64,000 nt of DNA from Acidimicrobiia bacterium. GTDB taxonomy: Bacteria > Actinomycetota > Acidimicrobiia > Spongiisociales > UBA5794. Of the stretch, positions 1-44,878 are shown one piece after another (the first letter of the stretch is position 1; every line of letters starts with the position of its first letter). The stretch covers positions 17,946 to 81,945 of the forward strand of contig JBPCTY010000047.1 of assembly GCA_051011415.1 (NCBI GenBank), written 5' to 3'. Under the pieces are notes generated by a model that saw only the letters and a list, made by a program, of their open reading frames with translations, was not told where the DNA came from and did no database searches. Position numbers and translations under genes: made by a program.

Positions 1-2175
1 TTCGGCGATGCCAATCCCACCTGGCACCGGAACGAGTCCTGCGAGCAGGTTGGTAGCCACCGTCGCAACAAGACAGGTGACGAACGGGAGTGGCGTTCCG
101 ATTGCCTGGAGTACAAACCACAACACGATTGCCAGGACGATCCGCGATGCGAGGTTGCTCAAGAGGAGGCCGATGATCCTGCTTGGCGTCTTGACCACCC
201 CCATAAGCAGGTCCCACGCATCTTTCAGAACCGGTACTACCGCGTCGCGCAATCTCTGGATCCTGAAGATGGCATAGCCGATCCCAAAACAGAGAAAGAG
301 AACAATTGTGATGATCAATCCCCAGCGAAGCTCATCGAGATCCGTGTCAATGGAGAGATCTGCACTCAAGAGGGCGAGCAACAAGATGGTTGCCTCGACG
401 AAGAAGCCAGAGATGCCATCGATTGCGCCTTGGCTAACGGCGGTGGTTGTCGGAACCCCGTACTTCCGGAGAAAAGCGGCGTTCATCGCAACTCTTCCGG
501 CAGCACTCGGAATGGCCAAACCGATCCACTTCACCGATACCTGAAGTACAACGAGCGGTCGTAAGACGATGTCGTATCCGGTTGCGTATCGCATGCCTGT
601 CGCTTCGGGGACGAATACGAACTGCCCGATGAAGAAGCCCAAGATGATCAGTATCCATGTCGCGTTTCTCACGACATCCCAGACCGCTACGAAGTCGATC
701 TGTCCGAGCATCCCGATGAGGGCGTAGGCGGCGATAAGCGATAGCACCGGCTTGACAAGGTCTCCAGGCCTGACCCGTCGCAGCCGCTCTGGGGCAACTG
801 GCTCTGTTCCGGTCTGATCGACGACGGCAGCGGCGATCTCGCGGAGGATGAGCTTGGGATGCTTTACCGTCTGCTTCTGTGCGTGGCTGAGAGCTGGGAC
901 CTGGACATACGGAAGTGCAGCGATCACTTTCTCAGACCCGAGTCCGTTGACCGCAGCCGCTACCGAGGCTTCAGCCCCAAGGTCAACCGCTGTAGAGAAC
1001 AAGAGTGAAGCCACGTCGATATGGCGGAGCCGTTCGGTCGCATGAAGGTTTGCGGAGGCGAAATCAAGGAGTATGGCCCCCTCGTCTTCCTTGCCGAGGG
1101 CATGGGCGGTGAGATTTCCATGGGCGATCTCGGCTTCGTGGAGTGTCCCAACCATGCTCCAGGCCGCTGCTAGATCATCGGTGTCGTTGAGATCGACCAT
1201 TGAGCTTGGCGCTGTCGTAACGAGGACTGCCGTGTCCTCCCCCACGATGCCAACGGCGAGCACATCCATGGTGCCAACGCCGTTCCGGCGGGCAATCAGG
1301 GTTGATAGCGCTTCGTGCTCGACCCGCTCTCTGCGTCCAAACCCGTGGGAGCGTGGTTCGTCTCGATACCAGATGCTGCGCCACATGCGGTTGAGCAGCT
1401 GGGAGTCTGCAGCATCGCGGCCGAGCGCCTTGACACGAACCTCGGTTCCGTCCGTTGTTCTGGCATCGAGCGTGCGTCCGTCCCAGTTCTGATGGGCCGT
1501 CAGCGAGAGATCGGAGACATCGAGACCGACGTCTTTGAGATCCCGCATGAGCTCGTCATACGTCGGATATCCACCGGGGGATCCGAAGATGAGGAGTACG
1601 ACGCCCGCTGCGCCGACGCCGAGACCCATCGCACCGATTGCATCGCCGAGTGGTGCGTACTCCAGTCCGATTGTGGCAATGGTCGTCAGACCAACTATCC
1701 ACCACCCGAGCTTTGCCATTGGCTTGGCAAGCGACGGCGCCGTGACAGCTGCCACTGCCGAGACAAACACCAGCCGGACGGTCGGGAACCGAGAAAGCCC
1801 GTCGCCAAACTCGGGCAAGATGGCGGGCAGTTCCCCGTACAGCCGCTGATGGGTGAAGAGGATTACAACGAGAGCAATGGCAAGAGCCAGGCCCATGTCG
1901 CGCACGACATCGAGACGCGCCTTGCCCTTCACGCCAGCGAGGATTAGCAGGAACACGATCCACAGCAGCGCTGAGAAGAAGACGAAGCTGTAGACCTGAT
2001 CGAACCACTCGGGCACGCTCGTGAGCAAGTCCGTGATTGCGGTCTCAAGCGCAAGCAGCCGGTCGGCGCTGGACAATGCCCAAAGGAACACGAGTGTTCC
2101 GATAGCCACAACCATTGCATCGGAGGCCCGCCGGGCTCTCGGTTGATGCGGCGCGCCCGCAAAGTATCTGCTCAC
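1..2175 (-). CDS. Multidomain membrane protein, 3' end cut by the window edge: N-terminal TM segments, a protein-kinase-like (RIO/Kdo-kinase-like) middle domain, and a UPF0104/LPG_synthase_TM flippase-like C-terminal domain
   Basis: My own minus-strand translation is open from position 1 up to GTG 2175 (alternative starts GTG 2184 or ATG 2211). It is absent from the ORF track, probably because it has no stop inside the window. Kinase-like motifs are VRVKALGRD, EHEAL, AHGNL and LLDFASA. The last residues in the window, ...VPVPGGIGIAE, match the PGGIGIAE motif of the neighbouring paralog. Confidence 0.8.
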   Translation of the reverse strand, partial: MSRYFAGAPHQPRARRASDAMVVAIGTLVFLWALSSADRLLALETAITDLLTSVPEWFDQVYSFVFFSALLWIVFLLILAGVKGKARLDVVRDMGLALAIALVVILFTHQRLYGELPAILPEFGDGLSRFPTVRLVFVSAVAAVTAPSLAKPMAKLGWWIVGLTTIATIGLEYAPLGDAIGAMGLGVGAAGVVLLIFGSPGGYPTYDELMRDLKDVGLDVSDLSLTAHQNWDGRTLDARTTDGTEVRVKALGRDAADSQLLNRMWRSIWYRDEPRSHGFGRRERVEHEALSTLIARRNGVGTMDVLAVGIVGEDTAVLVTTAPSSMVDLNDTDDLAAAWSMVGTLHEAEIAHGNLTAHALGKEDEGAILLDFASANLHATERLRHIDVASLLFSTAVDLGAEASVAAAVNGLGSEKVIAALPYVQVPALSHAQKQTVKHPKLILREIAAAVVDQTGTEPVAPERLRRVRPGDLVKPVLSLIAAYALIGMLGQIDFVAVWDVVRNATWILIILGFFIGQFVFVPEATGMRYATGYDIVLRPLVVLQVSVKWIGLAIPSAAGRVAMNAAFLRKYGVPTTTAVSQGAIDGISGFFVEATILLLALLSADLSIDTDLDELRWGLIITIVLFLCFGIGYAIFRIQRLRDAVVPVLKDAWDLLMGVVKTPSRIIGLLLSNLASRIVLAIVLWFVLQAIGTPLPFVTCLVATVATNLLAGLVPVPGGIGIAE

Positions 2176-35236: not shown

Positions 35237-35491
35237 ATGCAAATCTCACTCGAATACTGCGCAGCCTGAGGCTATACCGACCGTGCCGTGAGCACGGTTC
35301 AGGAAGTTCTTGGCAAGTACGAGCACCACATCGACGGTGTGACTCTCATCCCGTCCCGCGGTGGTGTGTTTGAAGTTCTGGTAGGCGACACTCTCGTTTA
35401 CTCGAAGAAGGAGACCGGTCGACACGCCGAACCAGGAGAAGTCCTGGTTGCTGTGACTGAAGTGCTCGGGCCAGTACCGGAACAGGCCTAG
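35237..35491 (+). CDS. SelW/Rdx-family thioredoxin-fold selenoprotein (UGA 35267-35269 read as Sec in a C-A-A-U motif)
   Basis: The frame of track ORF 35288-35491 is open upstream to ATG 35237 apart from one TGA. Read-through gives MQISLEYCAAUGYTDRAVSTVQEVLGKYEHHIDGVTLIPSRGGVFEVLVGDTLVYSKKETGRHAEPGEV..., which matches the Rdx family layout (beta1-CxxC/U ... GxFEV ... SKxxxGRFP). A hairpin lies at SECIS spacing. Confidence 0.7.
35279..35299 (+). promoter_or_regulatory. SECIS-like stem-loop
   Basis: ACCGTGC (35280-35286) pairs perfectly with GCACGGT (35292-35298). The loop is CGUGA, and a closing G-U pair is possible. The stem starts 10 nt after the UGA. Confidence 0.6.
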
Positions 35492-35513: not shown

Positions 35514-35729
35514 GTGCGCAGGTACCTTTGCGCCATGCCTTCTGGTCGCTCGAACACCATTCTGATCGCGGATCTGCTGTCTCACGATGGCCCGCACCTT
35601 CGCGTGGCCGATGACTTCGTTCGAGCCCAGTGCACGCAATGCGGAGACGCGCTCACACACGATCCTCGTTACGACGAGTGGGGTGCGTATTGCACCGACT
35701 GCTGGAGCTCTACGGGTCACCTTCGCTGA
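35514..35729 (+). CDS. Hypothetical small zinc-ribbon protein (CxxC-x17-CxxC)
   Basis: 71-aa ORF (or from ATG 35535) containing AQCTQCGDALTHDPRYDEWGAYCTDCW. The competing antisense ORF 35346-35720 is Arg-rich. No family recognised. Confidence 0.35.
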   Translation: MRRYLCAMPSGRSNTILIADLLSHDGPHLRVADDFVRAQCTQCGDALTHDPRYDEWGAYCTDCWSSTGHLR

Positions 35730-35731
35730 GT

Positions 35732-37297
35732 TCAGTCGACCCAGGCTGGTGCATTCCTGTCGAGCGTGATCGGCTCGCCGTCCACATAGGTCGCGAGCAC
35801 TTGTGCGTCGTGGATTGCTTGAGCGTCCGCCACGGATGGATCTGTGTCGAGGACCACAAAGTCGGCCGGTGATCCAATGTGAAGCGGAGTCGGCTCATGC
35901 AACGATCGAGCTGCACCTTGTGTAAAGAGGGCGAGTGAGTCCAACGGCGCAAGTGCCTCGTCCGGCAAGATGCCATATCGATCGATGGCAGCAGCCATGC
36001 CCCAGAGCGGGTGGGGCGGCTCTACCGGGCTGTCCGACGAACCAGCCAGCGGAATGCCGGCGTCTGTCATCGATCTGAATGGGTACACCCACCCCCTGCG
36101 GGACTCTCCGACCCGTTTGAACAGCCAATCAGACTCCGATGCGAGAAAGGCCGGCTGGACACAAGCGGTGGTACCCGATTGTGCGAACCGGACGATCTGC
36201 TCGGGACTCAGGATCGAGGCATGTTCCATTCGGAGTCGGTCCGGATCGGCTCCTGCGGCGATGAGTGTCTCGAAGACATCAAGCACTCCATCGACGGCCC
36301 GGTCCCCGATGGCATGGATGCACACCGATCCTCCAAGGTCGATCGAGTGCTGAGCGATAGCGGCGTCCGCGGCTGTGAGGCGATACGTACCCACTCCAGA
36401 ATCGTCTGCGAACGCTGAGTGCATTGCCGCTGTGTGACCACCGAGACTCCCATCCGCAAATCGTTTCACCCCGTGCCAACGAAGACGGGGGCCGGACGTC
36501 GTGAGCACGTCGGCCGCGTGTTCGAGCATGCGAGGGTCGTCGGTGATGGCGATCCCGAACACGTTGATGGGTAGTTCGCTTGCGACGGATCTCCAAAGCT
36601 CTAGCTCTGCCTCCAGCTGCTCGGAGGGCTGCTCCCCGTAGCCCATCATCGCTCCGATCGACGTGATACCGAGACCAGCCAATCGATGAAGGCCCGCAAT
36701 CAACTGCGCCGGTTGGAGTCCTTGGCCGCGGGCGAGTGCTGGGGAGATGAGGCTCGCAGCGGTTTCCCTGAGGACACCTGTCGGCCTTCCCGCCTGGTCA
36801 CGGTCGATCGACCCACCGTCGGGGTCGTCCGTGGCAGCAGATATACCGGACTGGTCCAGCGCAAAACTGTTGGCGACAGCGATGTGACCGCAGTACCGGT
36901 AGATCACCAGAGGTCGGTCAGGCACTGCGCGGTCGAGATCGGCTCGACCGGGCAGACGACCCTCTTGAAGGTGCTCATCGTCGAGGCGGGTTGCTACGAC
37001 AGGGGACTCTGGGTCAATCGTGTCAGCGAAGGCCGCAATACGTTCGATCATGTCGTCGATCGACGTTGCATTCTTGAGGGAGCAGCCAGCAAGAAGTGAT
37101 GCATACGGAGCGGCATGAATATGGGCGTCCCTGAAGCCAGGGACGATCGTGGCTCCTGGGAACTGCTCTTCAGATCTTCCGGAAGCAAGCAGATCATCAC
37201 GCTCACCAATTGCAGCAACGCGGGCACCGTCGATAAGGATCGCTGAGCCCGCTCGTCCTGCGCCCGTTACGACTGATTGTGCGGATACGACCTTCAC
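35732..37297 (-). CDS. Amidohydrolase-family metal-dependent hydrolase (Amidohydro_3-like)
   Basis: 521 aa. The N-terminal metal motif GFRDAHIHA and the rest of the protein are consistent with the TIM-barrel amidohydrolase fold. Confidence 0.85.
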   Translation of the reverse strand: MKVVSAQSVVTGAGRAGSAILIDGARVAAIGERDDLLASGRSEEQFPGATIVPGFRDAHIHAAPYASLLAGCSLKNATSIDDMIERIAAFADTIDPESPVVATRLDDEHLQEGRLPGRADLDRAVPDRPLVIYRYCGHIAVANSFALDQSGISAATDDPDGGSIDRDQAGRPTGVLRETAASLISPALARGQGLQPAQLIAGLHRLAGLGITSIGAMMGYGEQPSEQLEAELELWRSVASELPINVFGIAITDDPRMLEHAADVLTTSGPRLRWHGVKRFADGSLGGHTAAMHSAFADDSGVGTYRLTAADAAIAQHSIDLGGSVCIHAIGDRAVDGVLDVFETLIAAGADPDRLRMEHASILSPEQIVRFAQSGTTACVQPAFLASESDWLFKRVGESRRGWVYPFRSMTDAGIPLAGSSDSPVEPPHPLWGMAAAIDRYGILPDEALAPLDSLALFTQGAARSLHEPTPLHIGSPADFVVLDTDPSVADAQAIHDAQVLATYVDGEPITLDRNAPAWVD

Positions 37298-38085
37298 GGT
37301 TCAATCAAACCGAGCGGCATGTACGACTCAACAACGGTCCGGAAGTCTTGATGGATGTGGCCGTTTGATGCCACGACCAGTCCCATGAATGGGGTCGAAT
37401 CCCGGCCTATCGGATCGGTCACAATGCCGCCGGCTTCCCGCACAAGAAGAAGTCCAGCCGCCCCGTCCCATGGAGCGATGCCAAGCTCCCAATAGCCATC
37501 GAACCGGCCGGCGGCAACCCACGCAAGATCGAGAGCGGCCGACCCAAAGCGTCTGAGTCCGTTCACTTCTCTCAACATCTCCCTCACGACAACGGCGAGT
37601 TCATCGGCTTTCTCGTCGTGGTCGTATGGAAACCCGGTTGCGACTACGCACCGTTCGAGTTCCTCCTCGGTTGAGACGCTGACGACATGGCCATTGAGAC
37701 GCGTGCCCTCGCCCTCGACAGCTGTAAACAGCTCATCTCTAAGTGGGTCGTACACCGCGGCGACCTTGGCGATGCCTCCCTCATAAAGCGCAATTGAAAT
37801 GGAGACCTGTGGAATCGAGTGGACGAAGTTCACCGTTCCGTCGAGGGGATCGACGATCCAGAGCCTTCCATCTGCCACATCGCCACCGCTCTCCTCAGCC
37901 AGGATCGCATCGTCTGGTCGATGGATGCGAAGAAGGGAGATGATCTCCTCCTCCGACGCATGGTCGACTGCCGTCACCGGGTCGAACTTGCCCTTGTACT
38001 CGGGATCAGGTGGCGAGCCGAAGTACTTCGCCACGACTTCTCCGCCTGCTTTTGCTGCTGCTATCGCAACGTGAAGATCGTCCAT
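37294..38085 (-). CDS. Inositol monophosphatase-family protein (SuhB/ImpA/HisN-like)
   Basis: Trimmed to ATG 38085 (MDDLHVAIAAAKAGG...). Motifs AEESGG, WIVDPLDGTVNF and WDGAAG. The upstream 158 codons of the track ORF are Pro/Ser/Arg-rich and antisense to lnt. Confidence 0.9.
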   Translation of the reverse strand: MDDLHVAIAAAKAGGEVVAKYFGSPPDPEYKGKFDPVTAVDHASEEEIISLLRIHRPDDAILAEESGGDVADGRLWIVDPLDGTVNFVHSIPQVSISIALYEGGIAKVAAVYDPLRDELFTAVEGEGTRLNGHVVSVSTEEELERCVVATGFPYDHDEKADELAVVVREMLREVNGLRRFGSAALDLAWVAAGRFDGYWELGIAPWDGAAGLLLVREAGGIVTDPIGRDSTPFMGLVVASNGHIHQDFRTVVESYMPLGLIEP

Positions 38086-38113
38086 GATGAAACAGTAGAC
38101 AGACCGCAGACTG

Positions 38114-39655
38114 GTGGCGTCAGAGAACTCAGAACTGATTGCGACGCCCGTCTCTATCCTCTCGGCCATGGTCCCCGTTCTCCTGGTTGCGCTGAGTGCC
38201 GTCCTCATGTGGGCATCGTTTCCTCCGCTGGGGATTGCTCCGCTTGCATTCATTGCCCCCGTTCCTCTGTTTCTTGCGATACGACGCGTCGAGCGGCTGT
38301 CCGTTGCGGCCGTGCTCGGGTTTGCGTGGGGCGCAGCCTTCTTTGGCCTGCTGCTCAACTGGCTCATGGTCCTGGGGTTTGTTGCGTGGTTCCCACTCTC
38401 GATCTTGATGGGGACCTTCACGGCGGCGTACGTCGTACTGATTTGGGTCTTCAGGCTCTGGCCTCCTTGGCGCTGGTGGTTGATTGCCGTCGGTGGATGG
38501 GTGGCGTTGGAATGGGTTCGAGGGCGCTTCCCATTCGGCGGGTTCCCTTGGGGCGACATCGGCTATCCAGCAGCGGGTCTTCCAGGAGCAATTGGCGCGG
38601 TGCAGTGGATTGGTCCGGCTGGGTGGACGGTGCTTGTGGTGTCGTTCGCAGCGGGGCTGACGCTCGTGATCGAGAACAGGAAGGACTGGCGACCCGTTGT
38701 CGATTCGGCGAGCGTCATCGCACTGCTGGTGATAGCAGGCGCATTCCTCTCCCCGTCTCCTGCTGCGCAGGTGTGGCGCACCGCCATTGTGCAGGGAGGT
38801 TCGCCGTGTCCCCAGACGCGTTGTCAGAACGAGAACGAGCGGATCTATGAGCGTCACATCGAGTTGACGAAGGAGATTCCGGAGGGCTCGGTCGAGTACG
38901 TGATCTGGCCGGAGAACTCGACGGGAACTCCATATGAACCAGAGAACAACGATGCTGTACGGAACGAAATCATTGAGCAGGCGCGAAGGCTCGATGCCTA
39001 CATTCTCGTGTCGGGCACCAGGCTTGAGGGCGACCAGCAGTTCTACAACGTGAACATCCTCTACTCCCCTCAGGGGGTGAAGGTTGGCGAGTACCTGAAG
39101 CGCCACCCTGTGCCGTTTGGCGAGTTCGTGCCGTTGCGGGGTCTGTTCGATTTCGTGCCCCAGCTCGACCGAGTGCCTCGTGACATGGTGCGGGGAACCG
39201 AGCCGATTGTGTTCACCACCGAGCAGGGGGTGCTTGGCAGTCTGATCTCATTTGAGGGGTCCTTTGCGAGGTCCATGCGTTCGACCGCACGTGCTGGGGC
39301 TGAACTGATGACGGTGACAACCAACACTTCCACGTACGGCAAATCGCCTGCGACCGATCAGGCGATTGCGATGGTCAGAGTCAATGCGTCAGCCGCTGGC
39401 CTGGACACGGCATATGCGTCGATCACGGGGAAGTCAACCTTCCTCCAGGCGAACGGCGATCGTGGGCGCTCGACCGAGCAACTCGAAGAGCAGGTGCTCT
39501 ATGGAACGCTCCAGTTCAACGCCGATGTTCCGACCCTATGGGTGCGATTTGGGGACGTCCTTGCGTGGGTTGCGATGATCGCTGGCCTGCTCGCAGTCGT
39601 CGCGCGAGGTCGCCGTGATCCTGCGTCAGCTGATCGCGACGATCGTCCCTCCTGA
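38114..39655 (+). CDS. lnt: Apolipoprotein N-acyltransferase homolog (CN-hydrolase domain) with Ser at the catalytic Cys position
   Basis: Polytopic N-terminal half plus a CN-hydrolase half. The catalytic Glu sits in VIWPENS and the Lys in LKRHPVPFGEF, but LISFEG (TCA at 39248-39250) replaces the usual (I/V)C(Y/W)E. The start is uncertain (GTG 38114 or ATG 38168). Confidence 0.85.
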   Translation: MASENSELIATPVSILSAMVPVLLVALSAVLMWASFPPLGIAPLAFIAPVPLFLAIRRVERLSVAAVLGFAWGAAFFGLLLNWLMVLGFVAWFPLSILMGTFTAAYVVLIWVFRLWPPWRWWLIAVGGWVALEWVRGRFPFGGFPWGDIGYPAAGLPGAIGAVQWIGPAGWTVLVVSFAAGLTLVIENRKDWRPVVDSASVIALLVIAGAFLSPSPAAQVWRTAIVQGGSPCPQTRCQNENERIYERHIELTKEIPEGSVEYVIWPENSTGTPYEPENNDAVRNEIIEQARRLDAYILVSGTRLEGDQQFYNVNILYSPQGVKVGEYLKRHPVPFGEFVPLRGLFDFVPQLDRVPRDMVRGTEPIVFTTEQGVLGSLISFEGSFARSMRSTARAGAELMTVTTNTSTYGKSPATDQAIAMVRVNASAAGLDTAYASITGKSTFLQANGDRGRSTEQLEEQVLYGTLQFNADVPTLWVRFGDVLAWVAMIAGLLAVVARGRRDPASADRDDRPS

Positions 39656-43861: not shown

Positions 43862-44878
43862 CTAGCGAATCTCGACGCCGCGCTCGCCCTCTGCGATGTG
43901 ACCTATGACTCCTGCGGGAACATCGCTCGTTTCGAAAGCCCGAAGCGTTGCATCGACGTCCTCTTCGGCGACCACACATACAAATCCGATGCCCATGTTG
44001 AACGTGCGATACATGTCACCCGCCGGCACCTGCCCTACGTGCTGGAGCACCTTGAACACATGCGGAATCTCCCACTTCGCACGCTCGACCACAGCTCTCG
44101 AGCCTTCAGGGAGGACCCGGATGACGTTGCCAGGGAGTCCACCTCCGGTGATGTGTGCGAGCCCGTGCGGCTTGACCCTCGCAAGCATGTTGACGATCGC
44201 TGGCGAGTAGACGACAGAAGGATTGAGCAGTACGTGGGCCGTTGGCGTGTCGGTGTCGGGGAACGTCCCGTCGAGCGGCAAGCCTTTTGCGACGATGGCA
44301 CGCACAAGTGAGAACCCATTGGATCGGAGGTTTGGGCTGTTGACGCCGATGATGATGTCGCCAGGGGTCACCAGTTCTGGATCAACCTCCTCGCCCATTT
44401 CGACGATTCCCAGGGCGGTCGCGGCGATGTCGAATTGTTGGGGAGCCATGACCCCGGGATGTTCTGCAGTTTCTCCTCCGAGCAACGCTATGTCGGACTC
44501 AGAGCATGCTTCGGTGATCGATTCGACGAGCGTCTCCACCATGTCAACATCGAGCTTGCCGACCGCTATGTAGTCGGACATAGCGATTGGCTGCGCTCCG
44601 GCGGCAGCAAGGTCATCGGCGACCATGGCCACGAGGTCATACCCGAGACCCTCGAGGAGTCCTGCTTGGCGTGCAAGATCTGCTTTTGTCCCGACACCGT
44701 CGGTTGACAACATGAGAACCGGTTGTTCGTATCCGACCGGGATCTGAAGACCCGCAGCGAAGCCGCCGAAACCGCCGACGACTTCGTCGGTCCAGGTCGA
44801 CGTGACTCTCCAACCGATACGATCGATCAGCTCATCCGCTGCGCTGAGGTTGACGCCCGCGCTTTCGTAACTGGTCAT
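43862..44878 (-). CDS. purM: Phosphoribosylformylglycinamidine cyclo-ligase (AIR synthetase)
   Basis: YESAGVNLSAADELIDRI..., GGFGGF and the AIRS N- and C-terminal domain pattern. Confidence 0.95.
   Translation of the reverse strand: MTSYESAGVNLSAADELIDRIGWRVTSTWTDEVVGGFGGFAAGLQIPVGYEQPVLMLSTDGVGTKADLARQAGLLEGLGYDLVAMVADDLAAAGAQPIAMSDYIAVGKLDVDMVETLVESITEACSESDIALLGGETAEHPGVMAPQQFDIAATALGIVEMGEEVDPELVTPGDIIIGVNSPNLRSNGFSLVRAIVAKGLPLDGTFPDTDTPTAHVLLNPSVVYSPAIVNMLARVKPHGLAHITGGGLPGNVIRVLPEGSRAVVERAKWEIPHVFKVLQHVGQVPAGDMYRTFNMGIGFVCVVAEEDVDATLRAFETSDVPAGVIGHIAEGERGVEIR

Follow-up and report, generated by a model that had tools for sequence, protein, structure and literature searches.

The locus at 35237–35491 on the forward strand belongs to a 64-kb stretch of DNA that was analysed as a whole and is referred to here as the window. 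On inspection of the sequence, a reading frame opens at an ATG (35237), is interrupted by one in-frame TGA (35267–35269) and closes at a TAG stop codon (35489–35491). Translation through the TGA gives an 84-residue product that begins MQISLEYCAA-U-GYTDRAVSTVQEVL... and reads in full MQISLEYCAA-U-GYTDRAVSTVQEVLGKYEHHIDGVTLIPSRGGVFEVLVGDTLVYSKKETGRHAEPGEVLVAVTEVLGPVPEQA, where U at residue 11 is the predicted selenocysteine (Sec). Together with the three codons before it, the TGA makes up a C-x-x-U redox motif (35258–35269, forward strand; TGC GCA GCC TGA, or Cys8, Ala, Ala, Sec11), and a hairpin of the bacterial SECIS type lies just beyond it (35279–35299, forward strand). No clear Shine-Dalgarno sequence is found 5′ of ATG 35237. 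The mechanical list of open reading frames holds a 67-aa call that begins at the GTG at 35288–35290 (forward strand), a codon that sits within the apical loop of the post-UGA hairpin and is, on the evidence given below, very probably a false start. When checked against the sequence, the coordinates that an earlier note on this DNA had given for the ATG, the TGA, the GTG, the 67-aa ORF and the hairpin are exact to the base.

With cysteine put in place of U for profile scoring, the 84-aa product scores 69.4 bits against Pfam PF10262 (Rdx; cut-off 22.6), its residues 3–73 spanning profile positions 2–72 of 74, and 61.1 bits against NCBIfam TIGR02174 (CXXU_selWTH, the SelT/SelW/SelH family; cut-off 34.2). 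It reaches 72 bits against NF041051, a Campylobacter equivalog model, which is under that model's cut-off of 88 and points to a subfamily other than the Campylobacter-specific one. The 67-aa form that starts at the GTG is also above the Pfam threshold (44.6 bits), but its match begins at Rdx profile position 20, leaving out positions 1–19. Among PDB sequences, a phmmer search recovers the Cys-form Rdx proteins 2FA8, 3DEX, 2P0G, 2OJL, 2OKA and 2OBK, with E-values from 1e-10 to about 1e-4. In the four alignments shown, the YC-x-x-C motifs of 2FA8, 3DEX, 2P0G and 2OJL (YCTQC) fall column for column on YCAA-U, which places the UGA at the position of the second redox cysteine. By homology to these solved structures, the window protein would adopt a thioredoxin-like α/β fold. 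The matches bear out three points of the earlier note: that the product belongs to the Rdx/SelW family, with the N-terminus included in the PF10262 match and the TIGR02174 cut-off passed; that a protein begun at 35288 is without the redox motif; and that, in Cys-containing homologs, the second Cys of CxxC (in 2FA8, 3DEX, 2P0G and 2OJL) aligns to the UGA column.

Conservation of the TGA and of the codons upstream

A protein search returned 236 homologs, most of them only 59–68 aa long and covering 70–79% of the query. When genomes were scanned instead, with one genome taken per GTDB species, we recovered 47 loci from Actinomycetota/Acidimicrobiia, Chloroflexota, Bacillota (Thermoactinomycetaceae), Acidobacteriota and Gemmatimonadota, and in all 47 the tblastn match starts at query residues 1–3. 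The column of the predicted Sec is TGA in every one of the 48 aligned sequences (the window and the 47 genome loci, from at least five phyla), as it is in eight further loci (L052–L056, L062, L065 and L066). Around this codon, the motif [YF]-C-x-x-U-[NGD]-Y is conserved across the window and the 47 loci, with Cys8 invariant in 47 out of 47 distinct sequences.

The codons that precede the TGA are constrained as protein. Over the nine codons from the start to the TGA, the entropies at the three codon positions are 1.07, 0.81 and 1.33, compared with 1.02, 0.69 and 1.33 after the TGA, while the 30 nt 5′ of the ATG give a level value of about 1.8 whatever the position. Codon-position constraint is the same in these nine codons as in those that follow the TGA. 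The closest relatives of the window protein (P0001 at 77% identity and P0002 at 70%) are encoded by loci L052–L056 on five metagenomic contigs, all of which have the TGA. Upstream of it, these loci differ by nothing more than silent codon changes (GCC to GCT, GAA to GAG, GCA to GCG) and conservative replacements (Q to K, I to L and S to T), and their hairpin is identical or nearly identical to that of the window (7–8 bp, same loop). The column of GTG 35288, in turn, is occupied in homologs by GTG, GTC, GCC or GTT, encoding Val or Ala.

These observations bear on the proposal that the real product is the 67-aa protein begun at GTG 35288, a C-terminal Rdx fragment lacking the redox centre, with the sequence upstream serving as an untranslated leader. 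Such a product agrees with the mechanical ORF call and with the length at which most database homologs are deposited, and the fragment by itself clears the Pfam threshold. However, the missing profile positions include the first strand as well as the CxxC/U motif, the 10 upstream codons are under in-frame, coding-type constraint, and the GTG column is not kept as a start. The short database entries reflect the same gene-caller artefact, and the TGA-containing extension is present in all 47 loci on genome contigs and on the five contigs that encode the two closest homologs. We therefore consider a genuine 67-aa product most improbable. Two predictions of the earlier note find agreement here: gene callers do truncate the gene, most database homologs being cut to 59–68 aa in like manner, and the codons 5′ of 35288 are kept as protein, with TGA in the 47 genome loci and the five closest relatives.

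A second alternative is that the UGA specifies a standard amino acid, either under a genome-wide reassignment to Trp (code 4) or Gly (code 25), or by near-cognate read-through. Three public protein calls (P0018, P0028 and P0058) do carry Trp at the U column. Two of these, P0028 (L065:395–649) and P0018 (L066:89–454), are metagenome calls made under genetic code 4, and we reject their Trp as an artefact: the DNA has TGA at this position, and code 4 also runs through real TGA stops into spurious C-terminal tails. In the window itself, TGA is the main stop codon, ending 28 of the 46 Pfam-supported genes, which makes the recoding specific to 35267–35269. The UGA also falls exactly at the redox Cys position, with a bSECIS-type hairpin next to it, and decoding as a standard amino acid is in our view scarcely credible.

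The practical value of the corrected reading lies in annotation, as the gene would otherwise appear as a 67-aa “Rdx family protein” or “hypothetical protein” without an active site, and most of the public homologs considered here are mis-called in the same way or mistranslated with code 4. A generic scan for TGA-interrupted ORFs with coding-like GC3 was dropped as too noisy, since its 79 candidates did not include the true gene. Among the further TGA loci, L062 is a TGA-form Rdx gene on a plasmid of Cytobacillus spongiae (NZ_CP089998.1, 370650–370862), with the motif EFCMR-U-NY and a GUU-loop hairpin. This Rdx gene has no entry in the PLSDB table, and it is probably an unannotated selenoprotein gene on a Bacillaceae megaplasmid.

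Three homologs carry a sense codon in place of the TGA. At the U column we observe GGA (Gly) in L048 (10031–10033) and L049 (8561–8563), AGA (Arg) in L050 (702–704) and TTA (Leu) in L051 (441–443). Each of these codons is one substitution away from TGA, and there is no Cys among these forms. The Gly form makes up a 15-member cluster on at least seven contigs and retains a weaker hairpin. Its locus is strongly syntenic with the window, the shared genes being PAC2, HMA-ATPase, Rdx, amidohydrolase, InositolP, Lnt, Aminotran_3, purM, purF and purL. In the Arg form, a Cys has been acquired seven residues further on (CSQRGYAPEC). Replacement of Sec by residues other than Cys has a known counterpart in the eukaryotic selenophosphate synthetases of the SPS1 type, to which the Gly, Arg and Leu forms of Rdx may be likened.

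In the window, the predicted selenoprotein gene is followed after 43 nt by an ORF of 64 aa (35535–35729, forward strand) that contains two zinc-ribbon-like CxxC motifs. It matched no Pfam or NCBIfam family. Its identity is 92% to the copies in L052/L053 and 78% to those in L054–L056, and L011 has a weak match, which lies on the opposite strand. The ORF and the Rdx gene may share a transcript. One could imagine that the Gly, Arg and Leu forms keep their function without a second redox residue and that the CxxC ORF acts as a resolving-thiol partner, an idea that we consider unlikely.

The hairpin downstream of the UGA

The hairpin consists of a 5′ arm (35279–35286), the loop CGUGA (35287–35291) and a 3′ arm (35292–35299). 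Its 8-bp stem comprises seven Watson-Crick pairs (35280–35286 with 35292–35298) and a closing G-U pair (35279/35299), with the perfect 7-bp stem starting 10 nt past the UGA. The published consensus for bacterial SECIS (bSECIS) elements has an apical loop of 3–9 nt, an upper stem of 4–16 bp, a minimum free energy of −7.5 kcal/mol or lower, a G at loop position 1 or 2 (or both), with G or U as the usual next base, and a UGA-to-loop distance of 16–37 nt (PMC13188914). The window hairpin agrees with this consensus on four counts out of four, having 8 bp, a 5-nt loop and a G at loop position 2 followed by U; the UGA-to-loop spacing is 17 nt (35270–35286), and the bare hairpin folds at −11.7 kcal/mol. 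As a background, the two strands of the window together contain 2091 TGA triplets, of which 4.5% precede a bSECIS-passing hairpin and 0.43% precede one that reaches −11.7 kcal/mol. The fold of the whole 62-nt segment does not differ significantly from shuffles (z = −1.4), and the fold signal is carried by the local hairpin only. An Rfam search of the window at gathering thresholds returned no matches, and thus no curated RNA family for the hairpin.

Covariation was assessed in an ungapped alignment of 48 sequences (A2). The register of the window hairpin is paired in 77% of cells, compared with 29–47% for slid controls, and cells in which both sides of a pair have changed number 35, versus 14 ± 3.4 in shuffles (none of 500 shuffled sets has as many). 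Pair 27–37 occurs as six pair types, whereas pair 29–35 is an invariant C-G even though the codon holding G35 varies (Ser, Arg, Gly). Under a strict test for a contiguous stem, 31 of the 48 homologs pass every bSECIS criterion. The hairpin is present as the earlier note described it (a 7-bp stem with the loop CGUGA, a G-U extension and 10-nt spacing) and, on the further check that the note had proposed, it is conserved, covaries and passes the published bSECIS criteria.

Columns 22–43 of the alignment (window 35279–35300) accommodate two overlapping, mutually exclusive hairpin registers, and many sequences can form both. In the first, which is that of the window and of Acidimicrobiia-type sequences, 17 nt separate the UGA from a CGUGN loop. 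The second has a GGUCU or GUU loop 21–22 nt from the UGA, 4 nt further 3′; it is 85.5% paired and dominates in Chloroflexota and some Actinomycetota.

Distant Cys-form genes served as a control for the hairpin, and at the equivalent place five of the seven lack a bSECIS-grade hairpin while two have one. Because the Gly-form relative and two of the seven Cys forms have a hairpin, the hairpin alone is no proof of Sec insertion. We would take it as good support that ranks, as evidence, below the conserved TGA and upstream codons. The two Cys-form Rdx genes with a hairpin are L061 (Klebsiella pneumoniae CP125156.1) and L064 (Methylobacterium bullatum); the element (GCGCCNGCUGGAUGGCGC, −9.5 to −10.4 kcal/mol) occupies the SECIS-equivalent position and falls in the codons for R-A-x-W-M-A. 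It could have been left over from a Sec-containing ancestor or simply result from the codons used.

Genomic context and selenocysteine decoding

The window itself holds no recognizable Sec machinery. ARAGORN detects no tRNAs in its 64 kb and hence no tRNA-Sec, the Rfam search gave no matches, signatures of SelA, SelD and GTPases were absent from all six frames in a motif scan, and the roughly 50 window genes annotated with Pfam include no selA, selB or selD. ARAGORN likewise found no tRNA-Sec in the 47 related loci. An AIRS-fold gene at 43862–44878 was considered as selD and rejected; it is purM (TIGR00878, 328 bits) and lies within a purine-biosynthesis cluster that includes, by Pfam domains, purA, purD, purB, purC, purQ, purL and purF. 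A tblastn match in L040 to an approximate E. coli SelB query was also rejected, as it shows 27% identity, lies beside a tRNA cluster and was judged to be EF-Tu.

Indirect support for Sec decoding comes from L001, the best tblastn match to the window gene in the genome collection, which is not syntenic with the window. L001 carries, 8.5 kb from its Rdx gene, a selD with an in-frame TGA of its own (HGAG-U-ACK; TGA at 1475–1477, minus strand, in a gene at about 530–1513). The gene was first found by tblastn with an approximate E. coli SelD query and then verified independently by NCBIfam, scoring 404 bits against TIGR00476 with Cys substituted. The mechanical ORF call shortens it to 329 aa. The occurrence of a Sec-containing selD near an Rdx gene indicates that Sec decoding operates in at least L001. 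For the source genome of the window, we infer the Sec-decoding trait (selA, selB, selC and selD), and by the corrected gene call this Acidimicrobiia-like actinobacterium probably uses selenium.

The assignment to such an organism follows from gene order. The succession of Rdx, amidohydrolase, inositol monophosphatase, Lnt, class-III aminotransferase and enoyl-CoA hydratase is common to L003, L005, L007 and L011, four loci from Acidimicrobiia metagenome-assembled genomes that have 47–70% amino-acid identity and all carry the TGA. This shared order identifies the locus as an orthologous chromosomal one in an Acidimicrobiia-like actinobacterium. Within it, the longest ORF for the inositol monophosphatase (37294–38559, reverse strand) has about 160 N-terminal residues without Pfam coverage, and this extension overlaps the divergent Lnt gene (38114–39655, forward strand) by 445 nt. 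The true start of the monophosphatase is probably near 38100, since the homologs in L048/L049 are 267 aa long.

The question of decoding also raises the alternative that the lineage has lost it, in which case UGA 35267 would terminate translation and the locus would be a dead or dying selenoprotein gene. The lack of Sec machinery in the 64-kb window fits this scenario, as do the syntenic loci L048/L049, where the replacement of UGA by GGA shows that related lineages can dispense with Sec at this locus. Those Sec-losing lineages, however, altered the codon rather than retaining TGA. In the window, the start codon, the N-terminal 10 codons, Cys8 and the hairpin are intact and consensus-like, and the closest relatives (70–77% identity) keep the TGA with only synonymous or conservative upstream changes. 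On balance, a relic gene appears very unlikely, and we favor a functional selenoprotein gene.

Proposed mechanism and relation to known systems

Taken together, the most probable reading by far is that 35237–35491 on the forward strand encodes an 84-residue SelW-like selenoprotein of the Rdx (SelT/SelW/SelH) family, with the UGA specifying Sec. The ribosome would initiate at ATG 35237, and the apical loop of the mRNA hairpin at 35279–35299, 17 nt downstream of the UGA, would hold the SelB·GTP·Sec-tRNA(Sec) complex. Competing with RF2 at the ribosomal A site, this complex would then deliver Sec to UGA 35267–35269, so that translation does not terminate; here the SelB step is modeled on what is established for Sec insertion in bacteria. 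The product would be a small thioredoxin-like protein with Cys8-x-x-Sec11 following the first strand, a putative thiol/selenol oxidoreductase in which Cys8 and Sec11 would cycle between the selenol/thiol and the selenenylsulfide. Both Sec insertion into the window protein and its redox chemistry are predictions.

When compared to the SECIS element of E. coli fdhF, the window hairpin is alike in being a coding-region hairpin directly 3′ of the UGA, with a small loop, a G-U near the 5′ side and a similar distance. In fdhF, G23 and U24 lie about 22–23 nt from the U of the UGA, and the loop G and U of the window hairpin are 21–22 nt from it. The two differ in that they have no sequence similarity and that the window hairpin has no bulged U in its upper stem. 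Eukaryotic SelW (2NPB), SelT, SelH and Rdx12 share the Rdx family and the CxxU position with the window protein, and the similarity is marginal (E = 0.06 for 2NPB and 0.009 for 2LJK). Their genes differ in having a 3′-UTR SECIS with a kink-turn and in relying on SBP2/eEFSec.

The bacterial Cys-form Rdx proteins of solved structure (Atu0228 2FA8, SAV_2001 3DEX, V. cholerae 2P0G, 2OJL, 2OKA and 2OBK) are homologous over residues 2–79. They differ in having Cys for Sec, in being about 20 residues longer, and in carrying RAGW or RAAW where the window clade has RAVS, and they lack the KKETGRHA motif of that clade.

The closest known system is that of the prokaryotic SelW-like selenoproteins, whose 48 genes in the Sargasso Sea data and 427 sequences in GOS made them the largest prokaryotic selenoprotein family of either survey, and which were catalogued in complete bacterial genomes in 2006 (PMC1088965, PMC2398784, PMC1794560, PMC13188914). 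A 2026 review lists prokaryotic SELENOW-like proteins under PF10262 as “predicted with high confidence” rather than as experimentally verified (PMC13188914). The exact sequence of the window protein is absent from the public protein collection, and the gene adds nothing new on the mechanism of Sec decoding or on SelW-like function. With the known members it shares a full-length domain, an N-terminal CxxU, a length of about 75–90 aa and a bSECIS just past the UGA; there is no essential difference, the window copy being that of an Acidimicrobiia-like actinobacterium. The gene is thus a new sequence of a selenoprotein family that has been known for about 20 years and has dedicated NCBIfam models.
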